Shown here: positions 1,983-64,000 of the stretch, piece by piece | Layout: every line of letters begins with the position of its first letter | Position numbering within the stretch: position 1 is the first letter of the stretch | NCBI GenBank assembly: GCA_965645245.1 | Contig: OZ287084.1 | Coordinates: 992,001-1,056,000, forward strand | DNA from: Massalongia carnosa | Lineage: Eukaryota | Direction: 5' to 3' | DNA length: 64,000 nt | Notes under the pieces: model-generated | The model's database searches: none | Told to the model about the DNA's origin: nothing | The model's input: only the letters and a program-made list of their open reading frames with translations | Made by a program: the position numbers and the translations under genes

Positions 1983-2311
1983 TTCAAGACTGACTGAATG
2001 CAGTAAGATAGGGCGGCTGCATCTGCCGAACTTGGAAGGAATTTAGGGAGGATGGAAATGAGTAGGAGTTTGGGTGGTACTGCAGCCTTTGCCGATGAGA
2101 TTACAGAGGACCATACACAAGCGCACATTTACACTTCATTATAGTTCAGGCACAGCTTGCATAATTTCACTTGTTTATATAAAGTTTAAGAACATATTCT
2201 TCATATTGAATGTCAGATATACCATTCAGCATAACTGCCATAAAACAAGGGTATCTTGAAATCACAACAAGTCGTACAGAAGCCGCCAGCGTGAAGAAGT
2301 TATCAACAAAT

Positions 2312-4464
2312 TCATTCGATACTCATATTCATCAGCCCGTCATGCGTATCATTCATTCCCTGGAATCCGATTCGCTTCGAATGGCCGGTAGATCCACTTG
2401 CACTGCTGGCACTACCTCCGCTGCTCACTCTTTCGCCGATGATCTGAACGTTGGGAGTTTCTCGGCTGCTCTTTGGCTGTATGCCCCACCACCCACTGTC
2501 TCGTTGGTGCGGCGACTGAGGGAGAATCGGGCTGTTCTGTAGACTCATGCCGGGGGAGACGGCTCGGCGCTTGAAGTAATTAGGGTCAAAATCATCATCC
2601 CGCATACGTTTGTTGCCCTTCCGAGTCAGTTCGACGGAAGCCGATAAGGTTTGAGGCGCGAACGTTTGAGATCCTACTGGTTGATGAGTCTTTAGATGGC
2701 TTTGTTGTGGGGTTGAGGATTGAATCGACGATAGTGGAGTATCCATGCTGACATCGTCACTAATACCGGAAGAACTGCCACGAGGAATCGCGATTGGCGG
2801 TGGGGTCCTCATCCGTTCATCAAAGGTATTCCAGAAGCTCAGACCACCAGAGTTTCTAATCGCATGGCTTGTGAATGTGCTTGAAGAAGAACGTCTGCTT
2901 GCAGACAATTCGCCACTCATTATCAAATCCTCGGCATTGTATTCTAGAGTGTCAGATTGGCTGGGTGCGTCGGTGTGAAGGTTTGGAGAAGATGCCGTAG
3001 TTGTTGGCTGTGAAGGCACCAAACTTGGCTCTCCCTCGGCATCGCTTTCGCGCACCTGTCGAATGACTTCTGCTTCACGGCGGACCTCTGTATCAACAGG
3101 AGCACCTTCTTCTTGAAGTGCAGCTTGAATCCGTGCGAAGTTCTTTGATTTTGGCTAAAAATAAGAGCCAGTTAACGGTTGTCAAAGAATAGCACAAACA
3201 AGTCCCTTTGGAATCGAATGAGATGTATACGTACCAACATGTTGCCTCTTCTGTTCACCGCCCTCTTTATGACATTTCTACGTCCGTCGATGGTTGGCGT
3301 CACGGGTGTAGGCACGCTGTTATAATCGTTAGGGCTTGCCCGAGCATTCTCAGCCCCATCGCTTCCCTCGCAGTCAGAAAGCTGAAGATCGTTAGTGCCA
3401 AGGCTCAAACTCTGTCGTCTTGAATCCATATTCTTCTTCGTGGGTTCCCTTGATAAAAAGGCCCCGCCTAAACTGCTCTCAATACTTTTAAGAAGGGGTG
3501 ATGATGGCGGTCCAGGGCCATGCATTAAACTCTGGGCACTGGCGCTAGAACTCTTCCTACTTCGTTCTTTCTTATTGAATCGAGCGCGTTGGAAACTCAT
3601 CAACTTAGCCGCAGCAGGTGAAAACCCACCTATACCGTCACCACCTGGGCTCGATATTATAGCCGAACCAAAAGGATTCATCGTTCCATTCCCAGCCTTA
3701 TAAGCCTGAGGCGTCATGTGAATCGTATCTTCATCTTCATCATGACACATCATATCATCATCATCGGACGAGGTACTACCAGAATCATAATCCATCAAAT
3801 TTGCACTTCCAACGGAGCTTGATATTGCCGATTTGTCCGTACATGCCATGGTAGACCAGAGCGAATTTAGTACGCTACCCGGGGAATCTGGAATATTTGC
3901 AATATTTAATGGGTTGAAAAGACTTTTGCGTGGTATCATTATGCCCCGGCCACCTATAGTAGGCGATGAATCAGGCGAGGATTGTTCCGCGAGAGTGGAA
4001 TGATGCAGATTTGTGCAGGCCCGGGAAAAATCCAAGCCCCGCGACCGACGAGGGAGAACAGACGACGGAGTTGCATAGGTGGTCGACGAGTCGAGTATTG
4101 GTGACAAAGGCACGCGCTTGGTTAAATTAGCCGTGCTTGTGCTGCTGATATCCCTCGGTGGCATCTGCAAACTTAGACCACGATTAAGGACATTCGGTCG
4201 TCTGGGTGTGACTGGACTTGGAGAAAGATGAATGTCATCCTTGGATCTTGGCAAGGGCTCTGTGATTGATGGAGAGGGCGAGAGTACGGATCTGATTTCA
4301 TGCGAAGAGCGCGGTCTTGCTTTTGGGGTATCTAGTCCATAGATCGAAGCGTCGTATCCGTGGCTTCCGTTTTGAACGTTGTGAGGTTCCTGTCCTGTTT
4401 GGAGATAGCTGGGTAATTGACTTCGCGGCGCTTTCACACGCGCAGTAAGTTCCTCATCTGCCAT
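2312..4464 (-). CDS. Conserved fungal hypothetical Ser-rich protein (2 exons)
   Basis: ORFs 3172..4590 and 2312..3055 join via an intron at ~3155-3233 (RRGNML|PKSKNFARIQAALQEEGAPVDTEVRREAEVIRQVRE). Probable ATG at 4464. Contains LPRRSRGLDFSRACTNLHHSTLAE and FKRRAVSPGMS blocks. Confidence 0.75.
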
Positions 4465-35646: not shown

Positions 35647-36280
35647 GCACAGAACGCATCAAGGAACGCTGGGACTCCAAATGGAAGACGTACCAGAACC
35701 GCATTCCCCGCCCGACAGAGGCACAGCTGGGATCTCTCAGTAGGACGAGACTGAAGATTCACAACAACCTGATGAAAGCGGAAAGCGCGCTAACCACGCA
35801 AATCCGCACCGAAAAAATAGGCTTGGCAAACTTCCTGTTCAATCTTCGGGTACCGGGTGTTATGACCCGGGACTGCTCGTGCGGATGGCAGAAGCAGACA
35901 GCCAAACACATTATTCTACATTGCAGGCTAATCGACGGCAGATACGAAGTGCTAAAACAAATAGGCACCAACGACTATCGAACGATCATGAGCTCGTCGA
36001 AAATGTTGAAAAAACTAACCACATGGATAATAAAAGCAAATTTGCTGACCCAATTTTCACTAGCATCGCAACTGTTATACGAGTGATAAATCTCATTTTG
36101 TCAAGGATTTCACAGAACATCGAGCGAAGAATGCAGTCCAGAAACGGAACACGTTTGGGATAATGGCGCAGTCTGCATGGTTTTTATCCCTTTAAAAGGT
36201 TTTCCCTGTAAGAATAAGTAGATAGCCCGCATGGGCCGGCCTTCGGCCGGTGTCAGATCGGTACAAGAATCAATCATCAT
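35647..36280 (+). mobile_element. 5'-truncated LINE (Tad1-like) retrocopy
   Basis: Encodes only the ORF2 C-terminus (KAESALTTQIRTEKIGL..CSCGWQKQTAKHIILHC), then a 3' UTR with a GC hairpin and an AATCAATCATCAT tail. Flanked by the 13-bp TSD CATGAGATAAACA (35634-35646 and 36281-36293). Confidence 0.92.
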
Positions 36281-48813: not shown

Positions 48814-51800
48814 TGTGTCAGAGTGCAGGCGCCGAAAATTGTGAGTTGCCCACAAGGTCTTTGGACAGCTCCGAGCAAGTTCAAATAGTAAGGTTGTTTA
48901 TCCAACAGCTGGTGGGGTAGGTAGGATGATCGTGTCCACGAGGAGGGTGTTGACCGAGGTACACTCCTCTCTTCCGAATATTCGCGAAACTTAGATTACT
49001 ATGTAAGTAGGATGTATGAGTAATGAGCAATTGGCGAAAAGAGATTCGGCAGATGGATAACGAGGTCGTAGATGATGGTTTAGTAGATGTGTTTGAAGAT
49101 GTTAAAAGTGATCTGTGGAGAATTTGACGAAGGATAGTTGTATTGATGAGCGACTGAGAAAAGTGTTGTCATAAGTGTTGATTGATTGTCGGGTGCTGGT
49201 TTTTCTGGAAGAAAACGAAAAAGGCGGGTGGTCGAGACGTTTTTGTCTCCTAGGATCGAAAAACGGATGGATCGGGACAAGGGCGAATTAGAACTCGAGT
49301 TTCGGGGGATCCAAAATATAATACGAAGTAATAACTAAGATAATAGAATGATAAATACTCCAACAGGTAGTGTGGGTACAGATAGTAGGCAAGGGATGTA
49401 CTCTGTACTTGCTGAGATAGGGATTAATAAGTCGAAGTTGCCTCAAGGTGCGTGGCTACATGTGTGGTGTATGGTGTGTCTTCTCCGTGGTGTTATTGCC
49501 GCTTGCTGCACGCACGCCGCGATTACGCCGGTGCGTAAAAGGCGCTGACCGATGCTGACGCAATTGTAATTGCTGTTTGGACATATGTTGGAAGGAATAC
49601 TTCTTTGAAACTTGTTTAACAAGATGTCCAGAATGCTTTATCAATGGATCAAGGGTAAACAGTCTACCAGTACTCTGTATATATTCACTTGGTGGGTTGG
49701 GGGAAACATCACTAGTGCTTTCGCACACTCGGCCGATTTACGTTGAGATCCGGGTATTACTGCCTTGCCCGATTCTCTCTAGATCCTCCTTTTGAGCTGA
49801 GGAAACAGGCACGAAGGAAGATTCTGATCACAGAGTTTGAGGCTAACTACGGGGAAGAGGTAAAAGGTGGAACGGCGGTAAGATTTCTTCTCAGGTTCAG
49901 CAGCGAAGTGGTACCCTTTCCAATCTGATAGGACGATTCTTAGGTCTCTCCTAGGTCACTTCTTGCCGGGTGCGAAGCCGCTTGCACCGGCCGCTGGAGC
50001 CACGCCAGGGGTATGGGGAGACGTAGAAGTTGACAGAAGTGGAAAGCGCTCTCCTTACCTCGAAGTCAAAAACGATCCATTTTCTACCTCGTCCTCGTGA
50101 AGGGGAGTACTGCACTTCCCAGACCACTCAAGGGGTTAGGAGAGAACAAGTTACAAGGATATACGCTTTCTTTCGTCCCTGAACGCAGAGGGGGTCGAAG
50201 GCATGATGCGTGTGGACGATATAGGGGCTCTTCTGGTCATCACGTATTCGATAGTTGTAAAACAACTCATCATATCAATCTACCTACGTAGACTACCTCG
50301 TGAGGGAACGTGATAGAAAAACCCCCACACTTGCTGACGTCCCACGGATAAGGTGTCCCAAATCACGAGCAAGTCAGTCACACACCCGTGAACACGGCAG
50401 TGTGATAAGCCACACAACGCCACCAGCTAGATTCATCCCTGGTCCTTTCTCACTTTGACATCATCCCTGCACAATGATATGTCACATGCCAAATGATGTT
50501 TTGAGCGCTTGTGCACGAAGGCTGAATGTGAACAAGCAGAATCGAGGAATGAGGTATAATGGTCGATGCGAGTAAGACAGTTCAACGATAGGAAAAAGGT
50601 ATTCTCATTCTTGATTTTATTCCAGTGTACTGTTCAAACCAACCCTCAATTACGAGATGACAACTTTGATAATACAGCATACGGAGTCCCTTAATTGCCA
50701 CGCGAACGCATCCATTCCATCAGGCTAGTTCGAGTTATCTTGACACCCAACCAAAAGTCCAAATAGCCAAACAACAACAGGTTATGGCTGAGACATCTGT
50801 AACGGAAATAATGTTTAAATCTTAATATCAATAAACGTTGCGTTTGGGATTCGTTAACTACTCGAAAAGAGGAATGGCGATCAAGAAACTTGGTGACATG
50901 GACACAGTTACATTTGTGGGAGTGTACTTAGCTATTCTCATAATGGGCATTCATATCTATGTCATTGGGTCCCAAGATTTCCGACTGGCTGAAGCTTGAT
51001 CGTGAATTACGATAGCGAGTCGCAAGATGCATTTGCATTGACGACCCCATTGGCATGGTGGTCTCATCATCTTAAGAACTTAACAAGTAGCGTTAGCATA
51101 CGCTCTGTCCTTAAGCATTTCTCACATCCGTGAGTCAGACACGCGCGACATCGCTCAGGCCGAGTGAGTTAGAAGTCTGAAATGAATGACAGCCTGACCA
51201 AAATCGCTTATGCGTGCAATCTGTAATTGGTAAGAGTGGTGGTGTTGCAGCGTGCCAGACGGTCGCATAGATCGACAACATCTCATGTGACGATTTCTCG
51301 GTCATCGACCTCCATTCTTGCGAACCACCGATGCTCCGCCGCTCAAGAAAAGAAGGCTGTGCGATGTGTGATATTACATAGGACAGCGTGGTTGGAACGT
51401 GACACGAGGCAGAAATACGGACTACAACTTACTGTTGGACTCGACTTGCTACAGAACTATTCTGTACATTTGTCTGTCATTCTATGTTACCACTTCTTTT
51501 TCACCCGCTTTCTTCAGGTCAGCGGTTCATCTGTGCGCTGTCAGCCCTTCTTGCGATCACGGATATAACCCCCACGATCAGCGCAGTTGGTAAGTTTCAG
51601 CATACAGTTCAATGGGTTATGTCTACGAAAGATACACTCGTGTTGACCTAAGTTTTCCCATCAGCTGAAGAGCCTACTGATTTCGGCATTCTTATGTCAG
51701 CCACGCGATCATGATTAAGGCAAATTCCACATTAAGGTGAACACTTTGCATGCCGTACATGATGACATTCGCTTGCTGGGACACAAGGCGTGCCTTCACC

Positions 51801-52259
51801 TGCGCCTGGAAATGAGCCAGCTTAGACTAAGGGAGTGTTTGGGAAGGGACGGGGAAACGCGGAAGATGTCTCCCGAGATCCTAGGAGGAAATCCTGCTTT
51901 GTCCTAATTCCCATGGATCCAACTTAAAAGTCACTTCCATCAATTGAATGAATCTGGGGAAACAGGGCTCGGGTGCATGATCGACGAAAACCGCGCCTCC
52001 AAGTTCCCACTCTGCACCTACCCATCCGTAAAAGATCTACAGACTTGGTTATGCAGAGGCTCGCCTAAACCCTTGTCCAAGAAAGACATCGAAGGTCAGT
52101 ACCGCTGTCATTTGTTGCACATCAACAGCGGTGAATATTTGACTTCTCACCGCTGCTTGTTTGCCGCTGAGCTGTGATCATTCAGCTTGGAAGGGCCCTC
52201 ATACAATAGTACCCAGGAGCCCACATGAGTATCCAATATTCTACGGAGAACTCTGTACT

Positions 52260-52920
52260 GTGTAACACTTCCATTATGCGTGACCCCTGCACAGGCTTCA
52301 AATGCTTTCCTCTGGACCCTCGTTGCTGGGTCAGTCAAAATTAACCTGTTGTCTGATCATCAATTATCCCTACCGCGACCATTAGCATAATGTCCGACCG
52401 GCAACCAAGTCAGGTTCCTAGGCCCTATCGAATAGACTCGTGGCCTTCTTAGTCCCGACTCCACGTTGTGTTTCGGTCCGTGCCAGCCATTTCCTTCCCC
52501 TTAACTCAACCTGACGGTACCTCTAAGTCACGTTCCCTAGCGCCGCCATGCCAAGATACCGGACATCGGATGGCCGGGTCCTTCCTTCCTTACCGTAAAG
52601 TGCACATTTGGAATCCTGAAAGTCACGCCTAGTTTCTTAGGGGTGACGGACTATCGGGTTCTCGGATCCACGAGGGAATTATTCCGAAACGGTCCGTTCG
52701 GACTGATCAAGGCAGGGCTCGGCCCACGAGTAGAGACACTAGATTTCTGTGCTGGATTATCATCACCTGCTTCGGATCGGTTTCAGATGGTTTAAGGCTG
52801 TAATATTACGGGACTGTGCGATCGTCAAAGAAATCTCATGCAATTCATTCGATGAGTCATGCGTCCGAACTAGATTGCGGTACTGATAGATGTAGATTAA
52901 CTACACAAGAAATTATCATG
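52260..52920 (+). ncRNA. ORF-less hairpin-rich sequence, copy 1 of a putative structured RNA/element family
   Basis: Hairpins such as GTCACGCCTAG..TTAGGGGTGAC and CCGAAACGGTCCGTTCGG. Colinear short motifs shared with 57317-58026 (-). Boundaries approximate. Confidence 0.45.
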
Positions 52921-53385
52921 AAAAAAAAACTAACAATAAAACGGTAACTTTTCTTATGAAAATTATAAACAATTGTAGATCATGATTGCATTATCTTGAT
53001 TTCCAGTTTATTTTATGCTTCTCAAGCTTCGAACAATAATACATTGAAGTATATCTGATTTCGTCTTATTAGTTTATCAATAAACTTTTCTCCGGAAGTA
53101 AAACTTATCTCATCCGAGGAAGAGATATCACAGTCGTCGACTAGTTTCATGAGTCTTTCTGAGACATTATTCTTGTCAAATAAGTTGATTGTCACAATAG
53201 GAGTTCAGAAACTCTATTCATATAATAGAAAAATATTTGACATGAAGTTTATTCGATCGAGTTATTCTGATTACTCGTTATGTTCGACGCTCGAATCCGA
53301 TTCGACGACATAATTCGAAATTTAAAGATAAAATTAGAAAATATCTTCGGAAATTGTTCAAATAGATATATGATTATGATTATAT

Positions 53386-56300
53386 AGATAGATAGATAGA
53401 TATATTCTTACGCCGATATGTCACCGGCCGAAGGCCGGCCCATGCGGGATGGACTACTATGCTACAAGAAAACCTTTAAGAGGAATAAAAACCCATTGCC
53501 AACGCTGCGCGTACGAGGTCCCAACGACCTCCAGCTGTGCTGCTCGTGTGCTTTTTCGATGAGTCCCTTGAATGAAAAGAAAATTATTGCTTGTATAGCA
53601 AGCTTGCCGATAAAGAAAATTGCGCCAAAACGCCAGCTTCGATAATCCATCTCGTTACCTGTTTCAATGTTTTGGATGTTTCGAGTATCGTACGATACTC
53701 GTTGGTATTTATACGCCGAAACAGCTCTTGTCTTCCCGTCATTAATGGGCAGTGCATGATTACGTGTTTGGCCGTTTGCTGGGGCCAACCACAGCTGCAG
53801 GCCGCCGTCGTCACGTTGGGAACTCGTCGTTTAAATAGAAAACTTGCCAGACCTATTTTTTCCGTGCGAATTTGGGTAGCTAACGCGCTTTCCGCTTTTG
53901 CCAGATTGTCGTGTATTTTGATTCATCCTTTGGTTAAAGAAGCGCGCTGTGCTTCGGTGGGAAAGGGTACGCGATCTTGATATGCTTTCCAGGTTGTCTG
54001 CCATTTCGTTTTGTAATGCGCTTTTGTGGCTTTCGTGTGAGCGCTGCGACTCATCCTGACTGCATTGGCTGTGAGCATGTGTTGCTCCGTAGGCGTGATC
54101 CAGGGTGGGTGCGGCGTTGGGGCTGCGGTGGGTATGGCGCTGATCACTATGTTTTTGGCCCATTCGTGCTTGAGCATTCCTGGGGTCGGTTTCAGCGATC
54201 TTTTCTTGCCCGCTTTTCCGCGCAACTTGCGTTCTATCTCCTTGCAGAAAGACGAGATGAGTCTCGTTTGCCCGGCGGTTCGTTGGCGATATCTCGCTTT
54301 GACTTGTAATTCTTCCAAATGCGATTCTATAGACGTCACGTGCGTTTCGGTTTCCAATACTGGAATCGGGGTGGCCCGAAATGCACCCGTTATTGTTCGC
54401 AAGCACTTGTTTTGCATGACCGCCAGCTTGCTCGTCGCGGCTTTGCTTTTCCCTATTTCTTTCGGTGTGTGCCATACGGCGGATGCGTAGGTCATTGCCG
54501 GACGAACGACCGCAATATAAACCTGTCTGGCCTTCGAGAACGAGGCTCCCCATGTGGACGCGGAGATCCTGGTCAGTGCACCCGATTGTTTCGTCAATTT
54601 TTCTTGAGTTTTCCGTACATGGGCTCCCCATCTCATTTTGGTGTCGATTTGTAGACCCAGCACCCTGATATCCGGTTTGGGTTCGATCGTTTTTGTGCTT
54701 ATCCTGATGGTGGCCGTCATGTCGAATTTTTTCGGATTTCTGGACAGATGAATAAGCTCGTATTTGCTCGGGGCAAACACGGAGCCGTGGCGTAAGGACC
54801 ATCTCTCGCATTCCTTGTGAATTCTTTCTAGCGTTCTGCAGTTTTCCTCGGTGCTTTTGCCGTATGCCAGAACGTTGACGTCGTCTGCGAAGCCCAGTGA
54901 GCTTGTATTCGTGCCTGGTCTTTGACATATTTCCAGTAGGTCTGCGTTGTAGAATAAATATAGAATCGGGGAAATGGGAGAGCCCTGGGGGATCCCTGTT
55001 CTCACATCGAATACGTCGGTGGTGCGTCGTTGGATCGTAAGCGTTGTCCTTCTTTCGCTCAAGAAGCTCTCGGTCCAATCGGTAATCCATTTGGGAATCT
55101 TTCTCTTTCGCAGATTGTGTATCAATCTTTGGTGAGATACGGTATCGAACGCTCCTGCTACGTCCATGCTGAGCAGTGTTGCCACCTTGTCGTTGCCCTG
55201 GCCCCAGACCGTGTGCACCTGTTCCGTGAGAAGTTCCAGTGCCGATTCGGTGGATCTTCCTCTACGAGCCCCCATCTGCATGTCGGGTAGCAGGTTGTTG
55301 CTCTCGGCCATGTGGGTGATTCTTCTTGCGATCACTGCTTCTAGTACCTTGCCCATTGTGTTCAATAACGCTATCGGTCGATAGGCTTTCGGGGTCGTGT
55401 AATCGTCTTTGCCCGGTTTTTTCAGCGTGATTGTGTTTGCGATTTTGAAGGCTCGAGGATGGTACGCGAGCGTTACGCAGGCCTGATACAGTGGGGTGAG
55501 TAGGTCCGTTAGCTTCTCGGCGCATGCTTTTAGGATTCTGTTGGAAATGCCGTCCGGTCCGGACGCCTTGTCCGCACTGAGTCGTTGGATGTTCGTAAGA
55601 ACCTCTTCTCTCGTTATTCTCTCTGGGCATTCGATTTCGGCGGGATAGAACGCTCCGGGTATGTCGCGTAGATCCGCCGGGGGCGGTGCTGGAAAGAAAG
55701 TGCTCTTAAGCATTTCGGATTTCTCTTCGAATGTGAACGCTTTTTGATCGTTGAATTCGAGCGATGGCATTTTCGGTACTTCGCGGCCTGCATTGCTCTT
55801 GTTTTTGGCCCATTTGGCGAGTTTCCAGATTCCCTGGGGCGATTCGGTGGCGCGGCTTATCTCTTTACGAAACGAGAGCGTTTTCGCTTTTTGAATTATC
55901 TTTTGTTTTTTGTCGTTCGCCTTCATGTACGCTATCCAATCTTCCCTGAGATGTGTGGCGCTCCATATTCTGCGCAGTCTGCGGGATTGCTTTGTGGCGT
56001 CGTTGCATTCGGGATTCCAAAAGGGTTTGGCGTGTGCGCTTGGTTTCGCCCACGGGACGGAAGCGGCGATCACCCGCTGAAGAAACTTCTGTATTGGCGT
56101 GAGTGTATTCGTCAATCTCCTCGCGCGAGCGTGGGTGACTCGTAGGGGGGGCGGTCTGCTCAGCCTCTCTTAGCTTTTCCATGTTCAGAAGCTTCCAGGC
56201 TCGGCGTTTAATGGGCGTAGGTATCTCGTAGCCTAGTAGGATGCGGGTAGATATCGGGATGTGATCTGACGATTGATTCAAGTCGGGTCTCGTCTTGCAA

Positions 56301-57316
56301 TGCTCTATTCTTTCTGCTAAGTATTCCGACATGAATACTAGATCTATGGTGCTGAACGACCCTCGAGCTTCCCACGTCACTGAGCCTTTGGGCAGTGTTA
56401 ACGATAGGTCGTGATTCTCTACTAGATCTAGCAGATGGTCGGCTGCGGTGTGTTGAGTGGGCCTCGTAGGGCCGTTCCAGAGCGGGTGGTGTAGATTGAA
56501 ATCGCCGATCACAACGTGTTCCGCCTCGGCGGCGAGTTGGCGACTCAATATCGGTATGGACGAAGGACTATCTATGGATGAATAGGAGATTGGAGAAGGA
56601 TTATACACGTTGTGTATATGCATTGTTTTCTCGTTTTCTTGTTCTTTGATTTTTATTTTCAGCGTGCATATGTCCGACGAGGGAAACTCAATCTCCCAGC
56701 TTTCCGGATCGATTTTTTCGTTAATATAGAAGCACACTCTCGTGTCGCCACCTGGGCGATACAGAAGATGGAATCCACTTTGAAAGGAACTAAGCGTGGT
56801 CGGGCCGTTGGGGTTGCGCCACGGCTCTTGAATCGCTATTACATCGTAATTTTGTACTCTCTGATCTGCTAATAACAGTATCATGGTTGTTACGCGGTCA
56901 TTTCTGACGTTGTACTGTAATATGTTGATAAAGTGTGTGTCCGTCATAGATCAGTTTCCATGTTTTCCGTTTGCGGGGGAATCGTTTTCGGTTCCACATT
57001 GAGGGGGACTTCGGGGGGAGAGGGAGGGGAGGGGGGAATCGTAGAGGGGGGGCGGGGGGGGGGATGGGTGGCTTCTGTCTCCGGCGCTGCTGATGCGGCG
57101 GGAGCTTGCTGCGCGGTTGCTACGTTTGGGGGTCTGCCCAGAGTTGGCTTGGCCATCGCTCTTTGCATATTGCTAGGTTTCATGATCTCGATGTCTTTCC
57201 ACGCTCCTCCTTGGACGGGGCCGGGAGGGGCGGAGGACCGGGGGTTGGGCGTGGTGGGTGAGGCAGCGGTAGCTACCTTTCTCTTCTTGTTCGTGATTAC
57301 TTTGTTTGGGCTAAGA
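53386..57316 (-). mobile_element. Tad1-like non-LTR retrotransposon (LINE), 5'-truncated within ORF1, mildly decayed
   Basis: ORF1 C-terminus (56944-~57316); APE endonuclease (LQYNV, IQEPW, IGDFNLHHPLW, STIDL, SDH); RT (YRPIALLNTMGKVLE, GIPQGSPISPILY, FADD); C-terminal CSCG..H..HC finger; 3' UTR hairpin and (ATCT)n tail. Confidence 0.95.
53584..56947 (-). pseudogene. LINE ORF2 (endonuclease-RT-Zn finger) with one frameshift (~56100) and one in-frame stop (53923-53925)
   Basis: ORFs 55865..56947, 53923..56115 and 53584..53814; the last two are in the same frame across a TGA. No RNase H domain visible. Confidence 0.9.
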
Positions 57317-58026
57317 ATGATAAAATAGAGTTGACATCTCCTTCGTGAAGTCTCTATCCCAGTTTTCGTTCGTCTCACTGGTGCGTTTTACGGCCCAAGA
57401 CTATTGATGAATTCTACGATTGGGGTGAACGACGTCCCTTTCGCCCAGGTCAAACCCAGTTTACTCCTTAAGCATATATCAAGGGCGAGTCTAGCCGTAG
57501 CCCATGCGCCGGCGAACCGACGGGTCTCGTTACGAGCGAGATAGACATTCCCTGCTCTATATACACCGACATGCGCATACTGTCCTCTCGGGCTATGCAG
57601 ACGGTCTCCGTACGGTGGCCGCCATTGCATACCACGCCTCACGGGTTTTTTACGCCCACTTCGCGTTATTCATAAAGGTCTCCCGTTTATGAACCGACCA
57701 TGTCTCGCAGGGATTTCGACCACTATACTCCTGACCAGGCAGTATAGTGTCGATTTTCCGTCCCTACTAACCAAAAGGAGTAGAGGACAACTCGGAGGGG
57801 TGCTCGTTTGAAATTCGTCTATTAGCTCAGGGCCTAGACTGTTATCAATTAACGGGTTCCTCGTATATTGCCCTCTTCTTGTCCCAAGGGTGTCCTATTT
57901 GATGACTAGGTTGCCTCCACCATCCCCGGTACGACTCCGGTTCGGGCCGTGTTGCTCACGGTAGCCATCAATCGGATGGTTTTCATAACCCAAATCCCTT
58001 GTATCGTGTAGGATGTGACCCTACAC
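57317..58026 (-). ncRNA. ORF-less hairpin-rich sequence, copy 2 of a putative structured RNA/element family
   Basis: Many hairpins (TTCATAAA..TTTATGAA, CACTATACT..AGTATAGTG, GTGTAGG..CCTACAC). TCCCTGC/GCAGGGA long-range helix. Motifs colinear with 52260-52920. Confidence 0.45.
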
Positions 58027-58132
58027 TATGTGTCTATATGTTTTATTTCTTTCAGCCGGAGGGCTCCGTGTTGTAGACGAAGGAGACCCGTGTGATAGAC
58101 ATAGCTGACCCGTGTCGTACGTCTTTAGCTCT

Positions 58133-58858
58133 CAGCCGCTGACTGCATGAAAGGACTTGAACCTTTAAGAGTATGACCGAACGTTGTTAACGAGGTCTAT
58201 GAAAATCTTATTAACGAGGTCTTCGAGAACAATATTAACGAAGTTCCGCTGAACTCTTTTCATTCGTTTTGTGATCCATCGAGGTCTACCCGTGTCAAAT
58301 CCACACCATGCCCGTGTCAAAATACATTATTTTCAGCTGATGACTGCTAGAAAGGACTTGAACCTCTAAAAATATGTACTCCGATATTAACGGGGTGCAG
58401 ATCTGTCTTAACGAGCCCCCGCAGAACCCCCTTCACAGGGACGTGTTATTGATTTGTGACTGTGTTTTTTGTGACTGTGTGTTTTGTGACTGTGTTTTTT
58501 GACTGTGTGTTTGTGACTGTATGTTTGTGACTGTGTGCTTTGTGACTGTGTGCTTTGTACAACATGTGATTGATGACTATGTGTTTTGTGACTCTGTGTT
58601 TTCCTCGATTTTATTTAACAGGCCGGGCCTATTAAATGGGATATTGTTATTCTGCTCCGAGATGGAGTTTTCTTGAGGTGACAGCATTCGCCCGGGTGCC
58701 TTTACGCGTTCTGTTGATCCCAGCTGATGACTGCATGGGGGGACTTGAACTCTCAGGAGCTAGAACGCGTGTCGACTGTGCCCGGGTGGGGGATGATGCG
58801 GCTCCTTTGGTCCACATCTTCTTTCAGCTGATGACTGCATGAAGGGACTTGAACCCTT
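58133..58858. repeat. Four dispersed copies of a 34-bp motif CAGCTGATGACTGCATGAAAGGACTTGAACC(TTT)
   Basis: Copies at 58133, 58334, 58721 and 58825. The minus strand reads RGTTCAAGTCC (B-box/T-loop consensus) in all four. Confidence 0.85.
58454..58601 (+). repeat. Minisatellite of ~13-15-bp TTTGTGACTGTGT(G)T units, about 9 copies
   Basis: Read directly. Confidence 0.9.
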
Positions 58859-59040
58859 AGAAGCATGGTGCAGGGACGCGCGCATTCTACCCCCCGGCGG
58901 TTGGCCTTCGTATCCTCTTCCGTACGTACGTCTGCGACGCGTGTGAACGCGTTAAATTAGCATTGTTTTGATGCGAAGAGATGGGAGCAAATCTATGTTT
59001 GACGGTCGCCCCACGGTGAGGCCTTTGGCGTCTCCGTGGT

Positions 59041-59188
59041 GAGGACCGATGGTGTAGAAGGAGGAGGACCGATGGTGTAGAAGGAGGAGGGCCGATGGTG
59101 TAGAAGGAGGAGGACCGATGGTGTAGAAGGAGGAGGGCCGATGGTGTAGAAGGAGGAGGACCGATGGTGTAGAAGGAGGAGGACCGAT
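59041..59188 (+). repeat. 23-bp minisatellite GAGGACCGATGGTGTAGAAGGAG, about 6.4 copies
   Basis: Units start at 59041, 59064, 59087, 59110, 59133, 59156 and 59179 (partial). Copies 3 and 5 carry a GGGCC variant. Confidence 0.95.
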
Positions 59189-59753
59189 CATTATGATTAT
59201 ATGATTATATAATAATATAGATATATATAATCGTGATGTTAAAAATGAAGAGTTGTTATATGTAAGATTTCAAGAAGCTGTCTTTCCGTCACAGGAGAAT
59301 AAAGACTTGACAAAGATGAAGAGCAGACTTCAGAGCGATTATTTTTGCTAAGACTCTGTACGAGTCATTGTTGAAATAGATATATGACTATGATTATATG
59401 ACTATGATAAAAATGATATGCTAGTGAAACGCAGCCACCTTGTGTATATTGCTATTCTAATGTTTGGGCAAAGTCCTGACCCTAGGGAGTGGCAGGACAC
59501 CGTTCGTGCGCCGTCCACGCAGGGTACGGAGCCGAATCGGGTAGGCTACGAGGTCCATGGACGCTGTAGATGCGAACCTTGGGGTCAAGACATACTCCCA
59601 AAACCCCAAAACCGTGTTCCTCGCAGAGGAAAGGGTTAGAGCGTGCGAAGTCTCGCGATGATGCGGCTGCGGTGTAGATGTGAAGAGAGTTCGGGTAAAG
59701 CGTGGGATGTTTGTGAGAAGGGTCCGTCGAGATGTATGTGAAAAATGTGATTT

Positions 59754-60770
59754 TCAGGCTCTGTGATGTCGTTTCGAGGCATTCCATATAATTGAAGGAT
59801 TTGTATGTATGTATAATCGGTAGGCGTCCGACTTCCAACGTCCTAGCAACTTGATTTCATCCTCGCTCAGGCCGGCGTTTTTCGCGGAAGTGGCGGCGCC
59901 TCTGCGAAAGGAGTGACCTGAATAATTTCCTTGGTATCCCTTGTCTTTTAAGACGTCTCGTAATGCTTTCGTGACGAGATTCCGCGTGAAGGCCTTTTTT
60001 GGATAGAATAAAGGTTGAGTGAGATCTGTGGGAAAGCGTTCGGTCAGATTTCTCAACGATCGAACTGGGCAGGCTTCGTCGTTGACAGCCGCTACTGTGA
60101 CTGTGACGCCTTGTCGGAAGAGGTCCGTCTTGGAGGCGGGGAGAGTCAGTTGTAATCTGTCCTCGCTCAGTAATAATGAATCTCTGGTTATGTGCCATTG
60201 GGCAAAGTCGTCTCCCCACATGTTTTCTTCCCATGTGAATTCTTCGATACGTAAAAAGGCCGCAAAGGCTAAGCAAAAGGCCGCGTGCAATGTGGCTCCT
60301 CTTAAGGAATTTTGGTCAAAAGTATTGACTATTTCTTTTAGGATGGACCGGGTTATAGGTCGACGTTCTCGTGGCTAGACAGCGGGGCGGAGCCGGCGTA
60401 TGCCTGCTACGATTCTTTCTAGTTGGGGATGATGAAATATATTTAATTCAGCCTTCGACGCGCCTCTTTCGACTTGATAATATCTGATGCTGCTTATGTA
60501 TTGTTTTATGGTTTTTGGATTAATTCCCCTATCGCCTAAATAGGCTGCCCAGTCGCATAATGATCGGATAGACGGAGGAAAAGAGACATGAGTCCATAAC
60601 GCGCAATATTCGGTGTAGCTTCATCGTGCCTGCTCATACGATGTCCTAGTCCCTGTAGCTAGGCCCCACCATAAATATCTCGCCGCTGAGTTTGACAATT
60701 CTTGATTTTGGAACCAGTGTTCCGGTGGTTCACCGGTTGTGCCCCGAGGGCTAATGCCATGTCCTGCAGT
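59754..60770 (-). pseudogene. Tyrosine recombinase of the YR retrotransposon (in-frame stops in the N-terminal half)
   Basis: R-K-HxxR-W-Y catalytic set in ORF 59754..60290. The upstream part (YLWWGLATGTRTSY..) is interrupted by stops. It overlaps the end of pol in a different frame. Confidence 0.9.
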
Positions 60771-62880
60771 AAAGGATAATTGTCAGCGATTTTGTTCCAT
60801 TGACCGCGGGAAAGCATATCTGCCAGAGTGTTTTCTCTTAATGAGATCCAATGTCATTCAATGACGATGTCATGTAATGCTAATAGCATGGCAATATCTC
60901 GCAGGGGCTTCATGGCCGGGCCACGTATGGAGCCGTTCCGTAGTCCATTTACGACCGCTTGATTGTCGCCATATATAACGAGTTTGGATCCTTTGAAAAT
61001 AGGTAACCATTTACGCAATGCGTGTAGTATAGTCATCATTTCTTTGACATTGATATGCTTTTTCATGTCTCTGGACGAGGTCCTTATCGAGAATACCTCG
61101 GCGGGTGAGACTAGAGATTCCTTTGAGTGTCCTTCGTCGATCATCCCGGTTATTTCGTGATGTGTCATGCGTGACGCGTTATATTCCCGGACGAGGTCCG
61201 ATGAATCCTTGATACCTCGAGCAGATGCAGCGAGAAGTTCTTTAGAATTTTCTTCGTCTGTCATCCCGGCCATCCGCATCGAAGACACCTCGGCAGACAC
61301 CTCCAGAAATTCGCTGTAACTTCCTTCTTCGGTTATCTCGGTTGTCCCGGATTTAAAGGTTCGCATTGCGATGTCCCCGGACGAGGTCCGTATGGCGGAC
61401 GTCCCGGCAGGTGTGACTAGGAATTCGCTGGAATTCTCGTCGTCTATCACCCCGACTATCCCCTGAGACTGCGTGACCCGGACATCTTGTATCCTTAACT
61501 CGTTATCTGAAGACGTCTCGAAAGAGGTTGAGTTCTTCTTCTTTGAAGGCATCCAATGAGGGGGTCTCGTGGGAGCACCCCGTCTTGGGAGAGATACCTC
61601 GGCAAATGCACGCTGTGTTTCGGTTGTCTCTAATATTTGTGAGTTTGAACGACGAGAAAGCGTGCCCGCTTTGGAGGAGTGTGGGGTTCGGTGCACCGAA
61701 TAGTACCCGCCCATTCCCCATGTTCCCGAAGCGTCTGTCCATAAACTTATCTCATCTCTAGTGTTCAAAGATCGCAAAATTTGAACGCCATTCCATCGGG
61801 GAAAGAAGTATTGCCACCATAATAGATCTAATCGCATGTCGCCGGCAATGCGGATCCGACTCGTGTCTTCGCCGAGGGCGGTAAATAGGCGGCGTAGAAA
61901 GGCTCTGCCTGGTTTGACCACTTTGGCCGCAATTGATAGAAACCCCAGAAGAGAACGTAATTCGTCTTTGATCATATAATGTTGCGTTAATGCGCTGTTG
62001 ACCCGCTCGATAGCTTTTTTTAGCTTGTCGGGAGGTAGACGGGCTTCCATGCGTTGGGTGTCTAGCGTTAACCCGAGAAAATCGCAGATGTGTCCCGTCT
62101 CTCCCTTTGATGCGTTTATTCGCATGCCCAACTCTTCGCACAACGTGTCGAACGCGGACTCGTAACGAGAAGCTTCCTCGCTGATCTTGACGATTGCGAG
62201 GAAGTCGTCTAAATAATGTAGGATTAGTCAGGTTTGAACGATTAACATCCAATTTATTCCCTTGGCAAAGAGATTGAAGATGAATGGAGAGGTACGAAGA
62301 CCGAATGAGAGGAAGATGTTCATTCAATACGAATTGTTTCATTGAAAACCTAGTAACCATCAGTCCGTTCTTGCGACGGGAATGTGCCGGAAGGCGTCCG
62401 CGAGGTCGCGTTTCACGAGATATGCTCCTCGTTCGACGTTAAGAAGAGCTTCTAATGCTTCATCAAATGATGTGTATTCTAGGGCGCCTCATTCAGCGGG
62501 AATGTGATAATTGACCGAGCCTTTGCGTGGATGAGACAAGTGATGAATTCTTCGCCATTTGTCATTGGGCTTGGGGACGAGGCCCAGCGGGGAGGACATA
62601 AAGTGAGACGGTGATTCCCCTACGGGTATCACTCGATGCTGTCGAATTTGTTTGTCTAGATCTTTGTATAACACTTCAGGTGCGTCTTTGGCCGAGGATA
62701 GTTCGGGCTTAAGATACGCTGTTTTGGTCCTGTGTAGCCAAGTCTTGCCCCGTATCGAATGATGTTAAGAATCGTCTTTTTGTAGACTCTATCTGGATGT
62801 TTCTCTAATCGTCATTTCCATCCCGCTGACTTAAGCGGGCACCGTACCTCGTCCGCATCTATCCGGTATGGAAAACCTTC
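60660..62880 (-). pseudogene. RT-RNase H (pol) of the YR retrotransposon, multiple stops and a frameshift
   Basis: YLDD at ~62204-62215; RNase H motifs in ORF 60854..62143; frameshift at ~62700. Confidence 0.9.
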
Positions 62881-62899
62881 GGAAATAGACGAGAGGGCG

Positions 62900-63833
62900 C
62901 TTGGGACGGATAGTCATGAGGTGGGCTTGCTTTGTTGTTGAGGATATGGATTTACACGCGTACGACAATCGCGTTGAGGATGATGACGTCCGCATGACGC
63001 GCACGCGTGACGAAAAGTGCAGTTGGTTGGGCATTCGTCACCGTTATTTTATCGTCTCCACGCTGCTATGCCGCGTTGATCGTCTTGACTTGATATGCGT
63101 TGAACGAGGGAGTTCGTGCTTTGTATTCGACGAAGATTGGAACCCGCGTTGTATTCGATTTTCCGACGAAGGTCTCGTTCTTCTAAACCTCTGTTCGGGG
63201 TCCGCCAACCGCGTGGATCATCTACGCCCTCTACAAGGCGGGCTTTGTGAAAGCCGAAGTGAAATTGACGAATTGATTCGAATGTGTATAGAAGAGACCA
63301 GTCTAGTAATTGATCAATGTAGACGTGCATTGCCACCTGCAGTTCCATTTGTGTGCCCGCGTGAGCGATGTGAATGACGATTGACAGTATAGGAGGAACG
63401 CGCGAAGAAGATGTGTGATTCCTCTTGCGTCCGAGGCCAGAGCATCCTCTTCCTGGTATTCCACCTCGGTTGATCCAATTCTTAAGTATTTGTTTTTGGG
63501 CTGAACTGACTCGTATTCGGTTGACAGCTTCATAATGTTTTCCACCTTGAACTTGTTGTCGCGGTTGTTTTTGAAGTGTTCCGTGTCCACCATTGGGAAT
63601 CTCGCTATCAGAGAATGAAATATAGGGGACGCACCCTCAGCATGAAATGTCGCGAACGTGCTCTGTCTCGCTGATAGTGTTAGAGGATTCGTGGGTTGGG
63701 TGGCTTCTGTGCGGGACGCCGCCGCCTCGTCTCTGAGGCGTTGTATTTCGCGTTCGAATTCCGCCTCCTCTTGTTCAATTTCCCTGCTGTTTGCTTCGGC
63801 TAGTAGTCTTTCGGCTTCCGCTCCGAGGGCCAC
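62900..63833 (-). pseudogene. Gag-like ORF1 of the YR retrotransposon
   Basis: Coiled coil; HLLRAFLLYCQ and YTFESIRQFHFGFH..DDPRGW blocks split by frameshifts; C-terminal CPTNCTFRHACASCGRHHPQRDC Zn-finger signature. The 5' part may extend further. Confidence 0.7.
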
Positions 63834-64000
63834 GCAACAGTCTGGTGGCGGGGTTACATCGGGGGAGGGGTGGCGTGAATCATTTTCAATTGTGGCTTCT
63901 CTGGAGTCTGGTTGGGATGTGACTCGGCCTGTTCGGCTGCGTGCGCCTCTGCCTCGACCACGATTGACGGGCGCGCCGCGAGGAGGATTCGTCTGGCGAT

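Follow-up and report, generated by a model that had tools for sequence, protein, structure and literature searches.

A non-coding repeat fused to LINE sequences in Massalongia carnosa, and a nearby single-copy sequence with the same motif order

In a 64-kb stretch of the Massalongia carnosa genome (positions 992001-1056000 of contig OZ287084.1; hereafter the window), two non-coding sequences, copy A (52260-52920, + strand) and copy B (57311-58030, - strand), carry a series of short motifs in the same order. A preliminary description took them for two diverged copies of one large structured RNA. The locus therefore raises the question of whether A and B are related, and of what each of them is. 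We find that B forms the final 720 nt (the 3' domain) of a non-coding repeat 1.9 kb long, whose copies are transcript copies joined, at a terminal G that does not vary, to 3' portions of long interspersed nuclear elements (LINEs), and that A is probably an unrelated single-copy sequence. The genome comprises 52 Mb in 25 contigs; TTAGGG telomeres were found at 7 of the 12 contig ends examined, and AreA-like GATA, RecQ and Dopey domains are present among its genes, as would suit a filamentous ascomycete. The features of the locus, numbered from the first base of the window, are as follows (arrows mark joints).

59190-59202: one of two identical 13-mers that flank the whole chimera as its target-site duplication, here on the upstream side; the other stands at 53373-53385
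59189, - strand: first base of the element, G where the repeat array has C; in 20 of 35 distinct starts a G stands before the first unit
59041-59188, - strand: tandem array at the 5' end, its 23-bp unit repeated about 6 times here and from 1 to more than 20 times in other copies
58086-58867, - strand: four modules, each with a hairpin (at 58844, 58740, 58353 and 58152) that we take to resemble a tRNA T-arm/B-box
58450-58602, - strand: short degenerate tandem repeat, ACACAGTCACAAA-like
57311-58030, - strand: copy B, the 3' domain, with last letters ...TTTTATCATTCTTAG and exact 3' ends in other copies
57786-57853, - strand: weak hepatitis delta virus (HDV)-like descriptor match, inside B and away from the element ends
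57545-57720, - strand: multibranch domain closed by TCCCTGC/GCAGGGA (z -2.41; 3 of 200 shuffles as good)
57307-57311, - strand: junction G↓CCCA from B to the LINE partner
53386-57310, - strand: 5'-truncated LINE partner, presumably Tad1-like, with 3' untranslated region (UTR) and (TATC)n tail
57309-56950, - strand: remnant of open reading frame (ORF) 1 of the LINE partner
56950-55865, - strand: endonuclease frame of the LINE partner (Exo_endo_phos_2, 2e-19)
56169-53923, - strand: reverse transcriptase (RT) frame of the LINE partner (RVT_1, 7e-32)
53373-53385: downstream copy of the target-site duplication, recognised by identity of the 13-mer
52260-52920, + strand: copy A, intergenic and single-copy, with a run of nine A after it; its relation to B is unproven

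Copy B and the repeat that carries it

The B-bearing element occupies 59189-57311 of the minus strand. We scored 40 of 104 candidate B loci and all 40 matched, at 97-99% identity. The end motif of B has 70 exact occurrences genome-wide, 69 of which are B ends, and contig depth over B exceeds that of unique flanks tens to hundreds of times in three runs, although such depth is a poor measure of copy number. A, on the other hand, matches itself alone in the genome, as does the 1.5 kb preceding it, and in the same three runs A has the contig depth of unique flanks. A multicopy repeat and a single-copy sequence are not the two diverged copies that had been proposed. The earlier statement that neither holds a credible ORF stands, as no Pfam-matching ORF was found in A or B. 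Some B copies are 5'-truncated, and a 13-copy variant has an altered AGTC island.

The 3' end of the element is sharply defined. It closes at CTTAG, and 62 of 65 distinct B ends terminate in TAG at the junction. Among 63 plus 4 distinct junctions, every partner that could be read lies in sense and derives from LINE ORF1, ORF2 or the 3' part, with partners from several families whose RT identity to the window LINE falls from 97% to about 30%. At one locus (L030) B is joined instead to a repeat (2274-3200; short tandem units, two LINE-type tails) resembling a short interspersed nuclear element (SINE), and at L110 the partner is too short for direct typing. In the window, one 13-bp target-site duplication surrounds B together with a LINE that begins within ORF1, and duplications likewise surround B plus LINE at L264, L265, L267, L269 and L270. 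No solo B copy was found among the junctions examined. Nor is this a classical SINE, since the partners vary and there is no fixed LINE-derived 3' end. The 5' G, the variable 5' ends and the target-site duplications show the copies to be copies of transcripts; the initial non-array G is probably a copied cap, and the 23-bp array is likely to be the region where transcription starts. We also considered the array as a telomere repeat and rejected this, as telomeres here are TTAGGG.

By its architecture the element is almost certainly of the type of MINE, in which WEIRD RNA is joined to a 5'-truncated MGL LINE or Mg-SINE in Magnaporthe grisea (PMC2104539, accessible text). The preliminary description would have to give way if the sequences were ordinary UTR or long terminal repeat (LTR) remnants of a known transposable element, and this applies in part: B does lie in a retroposed repeat of the MINE/WEIRD kind, yet it is not an ordinary LINE UTR or LTR.

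Other observations concern the copies and their surroundings. Many B copies (loci L063-L124) are broken by later insertions starting with TG, likely LTR elements. An older copy (L126/L274/L280; C21, ~1009000-1022000) is 87-90% identical, has a 54-nt replacement and a large insertion, and lies on single-copy contigs in all three runs. Around the window chimera, outside the target-site duplication, a 33-bp repeat (94%; 53353-53385 and 59367-59399) lies in AT-rich decayed repeat DNA.

Chimeric loci as sources and the joining site

We built a tree of 53 of 62 B copies, those longer than 1.5 kb; its bootstrap is not settled, and it shows subfamilies, each with several different partners. Two copies, L040 (the same locus as L264) and L011, are identical across 1.7 kb and have different partners. 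A private 5' flank is common to ten B copies and absent elsewhere in the genome; a 13-mer from it has 10 occurrences in the genome, each before B. At one of these loci, L264 on C9, a 12-bp target-site duplication lies inside the shared flank and recurs right after the LINE tail of that locus, which makes the part of the flank outside the duplication host DNA of L264. Nine other copies carry this host flank, over 584, 525, 340, 329, 227, 208, 184, 183 and 66 nt; one of the nine daughters (L271) has a variant of the 13-mer. L273, a further copy, shares its start with L264 and is a sibling. The partner of L264 occurs in none of the nine daughters, and four of them have their own duplications of 13-15 bp, placed past the LINE tail. 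Another subfamily, which has a short flank of its own, shows the same pattern. Since the daughters combine the L264 flank with other partners, a transcript of a chimeric locus swaps its partner at the same base. We conclude that chimeric loci very probably serve as sources, with the partner exchanged exactly at the junction.

These pedigrees bear directly on a different account, in which a solo housekeeping-type RNA gene with a U6-like processed 3' end yields an RNA that the host ligates to LINE fragments it has cut, and every genomic copy is a dead pseudogene. U6/L1 fusions offer a precedent for RNA ligation (PMC6789731, in the part accessible), and WEIRD itself was read as a housekeeping RNA in the accessible text of PMC2104539. 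With a chimeric locus acting as source, several subfamilies with 5' flanks of their own, and junctions that include no solo copy, we regard such a gene as improbable.

We then compared the partner starts at 64 distinct junctions. The first base is C in 48, the second C in 49, the third C in 32 and the fourth G in 31. The LINE base lost just before the junction was assessable at 38 of the 64, where another LINE copy of at least 93% identity was at hand; it is A in 24, T in 7 and G in 2 (p 0.015). Bases other than C at +1 to +3 are T in 37 of 63 cases, against 31% expected (p 9e-6), while non-G bases at +4 are A in 14 of 33, against 42% expected, which is the background rate. The joining site is A↓CCCG, and U is accepted at +1 to +3. 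The T bias at +1 to +3 and the low G at -1 argue for an RNA guide with G.U wobble rather than for homology to the B end. On these sequence statistics, a putative guide CGGG pairing with LINE RNA fits better than microhomology of complementary DNA (cDNA): annealing of cDNA to a CCCG tail on B predicts enrichment of A at +4 and G at -1, and neither was observed.

Template switching during LINE reverse transcription is nevertheless the rival that we take most seriously, though we think it distinctly less likely than not. In this model a CGGG-ended cDNA jumps, by 1-4 bases of microhomology, to B RNA trimmed to its G and a few bases of the old partner, and the B domain is a protective end structure. 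The partner of L264 starts with CCCGG, of which the daughters match 1-4 of five bases, and a template-switching model was proposed for MINE (PMC2104539, accessible text). The first base is other than C at 16 of 64 junctions, yet the register never slips, and both the wobble asymmetry and the depletion of G at -1 oppose pairing of cDNA with RNA.

The CTTAG end also invites a spliceosomal explanation, in which the spliceosome makes or uses the junction and CTTAG is a 3' splice site. We consider this very improbable: copies start at variable, capped-looking ends and not at GT, AG does not precede the junction on the LINE side (-1 is G in 2 of 38), and no canonical branch site precedes the B end. 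The observation in its favour comes from C4, where an in-frame protein phosphatase coding stretch directly follows the B-terminal 14-mer, which sits there in the position of an acceptor. This locus (L279, ~2564; C4:1477050) has no B upstream of the phosphatase coding stretch, and its intron-acceptor-like 14-mer is probably there by chance.

Mechanism and ribozyme tests

Taken together, we read B as the 3' domain of a non-autonomous retroelement parasitising LINEs, and we put at roughly 0.55 the probability of this reading together with the mechanism that we propose. In this mechanism, a capped RNA polymerase II (Pol II) transcript of a chimeric locus would lose its old partner exactly past the terminal G, and the freed G end would be joined to LINE RNA that has been opened at A↓CCCG, a site picked by a short guide, 5'-CGGG(U)-3', through pairing with LINE RNA, G.U allowed. 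The 700-nt domain would position the terminal G and probably also the cut. LINE proteins show cis preference; following the tail that they recognise, which the LINE part supplies, they would insert the joined RNA by target-primed reverse transcription. We lean slightly towards exchange of partners at the RNA level; for U6/L1, ligation of RNA ahead of retrotransposition is documented (PMC6789731, accessible part). As to what carries it out, it is possible, though not the likelier case, that B itself is the catalyst, a 3'-exon-exchange ribozyme; we think somewhat less of the idea that B recruits a host nuclease and ligase.

Behind the module hairpins stand CAGTCATCAGCTG-like words and the words ACACGGG/CCCGGGC (58780, 58690, 58310, 58288, 58108 and 58086), whose CGGG we regard as a possible guide; B has several CGGG or UGGG words, four of them in ACACGGG repeats. 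Local folding of LINE RNA at the junctions gave no clear signal.

B is moderately structured. Local folding reaches z -4.1 at 57660-57780, and the whole domain has z -1.36, against -0.10 for A, which folds like its own shuffles (20 shuffles each). The pairing of TCCCT(A)GC with GCAGGG, suggested earlier for both sequences, closes the multibranch domain in B; in A, GCAGGG pairs with another strand in both the minimum free energy and the centroid structure. Of the proposed large structured RNA there remains, for B, a non-coding, moderately structured sequence with a role in mobility and possibly a ribozyme; the argument from shared islands is not established, and A folds no better than shuffles. 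Among 60 B copies we found no compensatory changes, their differences being mostly G>A and C>T decay, and no enrichment of tetraloops.

We searched B for known ribozymes, using descriptors for group I introns, HDV-like ribozymes and hammerheads. The arrangement proposed here would follow the logic of group I introns, with the terminal G in the role of omega-G and the guide, paired to the start of the 3' partner, in that of P10. B differs in having A before the cut where group I introns have U (of 38 junctions, 24 have A there and 7 have T). HDV-like ribozymes reportedly stand at the 5' ends of non-LTR elements such as L1Tc; the match in B is internal and weak and marks no copy end, as none of 23 internal starts falls at 57853, the position of the would-be cleavage site. 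Six such matches occur over both strands of the window, and A has no fitting upstream P1 and compact P2 for this fold. Hammerhead cores found by descriptor are incomplete. We also tried telomerase RNA and rejected it: no TTAGGG template is seen by eye in A or B, and B is multicopy.

A number of results weigh against the retroelement reading or its parts. With regard to catalysis, the search with Rfam covariance models was blank, in line with the preliminary description, which could name no family (one match, at E 0.28, is below its gathering score); the group I core P3-P4-P6-P7 is at chance level, 32 of 73 shuffles reaching the best descriptor score of B; and the HDV-like match has 6 of 7 pairs in P1, no J1/2, a 5-bp AU-rich P2 and an internal position. 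With regard to the joining site, decay of C to T, at 1.9% per C, raises T slightly and accounts for few cases; LINE references for lost bases cover only the 38 junctions given above, and 10 of 39 references are unlike the junction within the first four bases; at L061 the junction has C where the LINE has A, hinting at a non-LINE C and favouring template switching; and no guide is singled out, as several GGG words in B score alike. With regard to the pedigrees, a clean target-site duplication is absent in 3 of the 9 daughters, and 2 have matches of 9 bp only. Finally, the exact end motif is missing from about 35 of the candidate copies, which number roughly 104; 16 matched pieces ended before it (3 later resumed past an insertion), and a solo B gene may exist, unseen or unassembled.

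Copy A and comparison with known systems

All eight motif pairs of A and B are exactly where they had been reported, although TTATCAT is present at two places in A (52757 and 52913), which makes its use as an anchor a matter of choice. The likeness itself is not clearly above chance: shuffles are beaten marginally and many genomic tiles score equally. Under four alignment scorings, 6, 9, 11 and 50 of 200 shuffles were as good, and in a further test 97, 104 and 228 of 1000. Among 710 real tiles of the genome with B masked, 86-393 scored as well, and 62-232 in another test. The best ranks came from chains of BLAST high-scoring segment pairs (HSPs), compared with a random 700 of 1262 genome tiles after removal of 20 telomeric tiles: 8-24 of 700 (1.1-3.4%) were as good for chains of two to five segments with drift of at most 80, and 15-120 with no drift limit. 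The best of these figures, 1.1% (two best colinear gapped HSPs, drift 80), corresponds to about two such tiles per 64-kb window.

Searches from B do not lead to A. A search by nhmmer with 60 B copies did not recover A, and covariance models of three B segments (filters off) missed A at matching places, a model of the B 5' part giving a match at E 0.084 on the 3' part of A, out of order. An A-type motif with two mismatches has 7 matches in the genome and 12 in a control. Outside the genome there were 5 motif matches in viral contigs and at least 120 in metagenomes (long flanks for 80); among the matches listed, none has more than one further island or a blastn match to A or B. No LINE RT was found in viral contigs. 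A itself has no LINE partner, no target-site duplication and no repeat, nor an exact 10-mer duplication or sign of a poly(A) retrocopy.

Could A and B still be remote homologues, with the islands belonging to one large RNA and A an older relic or a host gene? The motifs are exact and colinear and rank in the top 1.1-3.4% of tiles when chains are limited in drift; exact matches to a gapped 16-mer are confined to B copies and A; and a 3-bp helix, 7 nt and AG can form around CTAGGCCCT in both, in shifted register. The rank is not significant once the window is allowed for, however, and the failed covariance matches, the shuffle-like folding of A, its want of LINE partner and duplication, and the changed AGTC island of the 13-copy B variant all speak against kinship. 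Homology of the two is unproven and, in our estimate, unlikely. Equally unlikely is the boldest combination: that B is a protein-free catalytic RNA of an undescribed class, cutting off its old LINE partner, splicing its terminal G onto new LINE mRNAs at guide-chosen A↓CCCG sites and exploiting the cis preference of whichever LINE family it joins, with A its remote relative and the islands its catalytic core. That A is an unrelated single-copy sequence is the probable reading, and A may belong, as its 3' part, to a Pol II transcript that undergoes splicing. Intron-like signals are present at 51590-52386 (+ strand; GTAAGT at 51590, GTCAGT at 52096 and 52331, with YAG and branch-like words), and near A, at ~51980-52095, there is a short open frame with no Pfam match; small ORFs around A likewise have none.

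Two other elements lie in the window. A second, diverged LINE 3' end at 35754-36270 (+ strand) is 67% identical to 53404-53919. At 59750-63930 (- strand) there is a broken tyrosine-recombinase retrotransposon with gag-like, RT, RNase H and tyrosine-recombinase frames; the last has at least 151 genome matches (150 of 283 candidates scored), dozens of them identical and open. In Ascomycota, a single remnant Ngaro element has been found, according to the accessible text of PMC3783388. We rejected the idea that B is the end of this adjacent retrotransposon, since other B copies stop near 59190 and lack it.

Our literature search, which most subscription journals lay beyond, found no paper on partner exchange of this kind. 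Spliceosomal trans-splicing has been discussed for mammalian L1 chimeras (bioRxiv 10.1101/2025.02.02.635956, accessible part) and does not fit here. In U6/LINE-1 chimeras, as in this element, a complete small RNA is placed on a variably truncated LINE and joining before insertion, at the RNA level, is possible; they differ in having solo genes and a cyclic-phosphate end and in being dead ends, whereas here the 5' partner regenerates (PMC6789731, accessible part).

MINE is the closest parallel. It shares the full-length non-coding 5' part, the sense fusion to a variably truncated LINE, the single target-site duplication, the lack of solo copies, one SINE-type partner and a C-rich junction motif (GCC↓A/U in MINE). 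Stress-induced MINE transcripts are described in the accessible text of PMC3978060. The source gene and function of WEIRD-type RNAs, taken for accidentally copied housekeeping RNAs, have been open since the MINE papers. The element described here appears to breed from its own chimeras and to exchange partners at one exact base by a sequence rule, a strategy unlike that of SINEs among transposable elements, and its joining step is open to direct testing in vitro; should the RNA itself be the catalyst, it would be a natural trans-splicing ribozyme with a guide of four to five bases. MINE differs in the length of its RNA (1.1 kb for WEIRD, 1.9 kb here), in having one LINE family where we find several, and in its junction, which here is A↓CCCG. 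Finally, WEIRD was judged not transposable and its gene was missing from the assembly (PMC2104539, accessible text), whereas in Massalongia carnosa we find a chimeric locus acting as the source.
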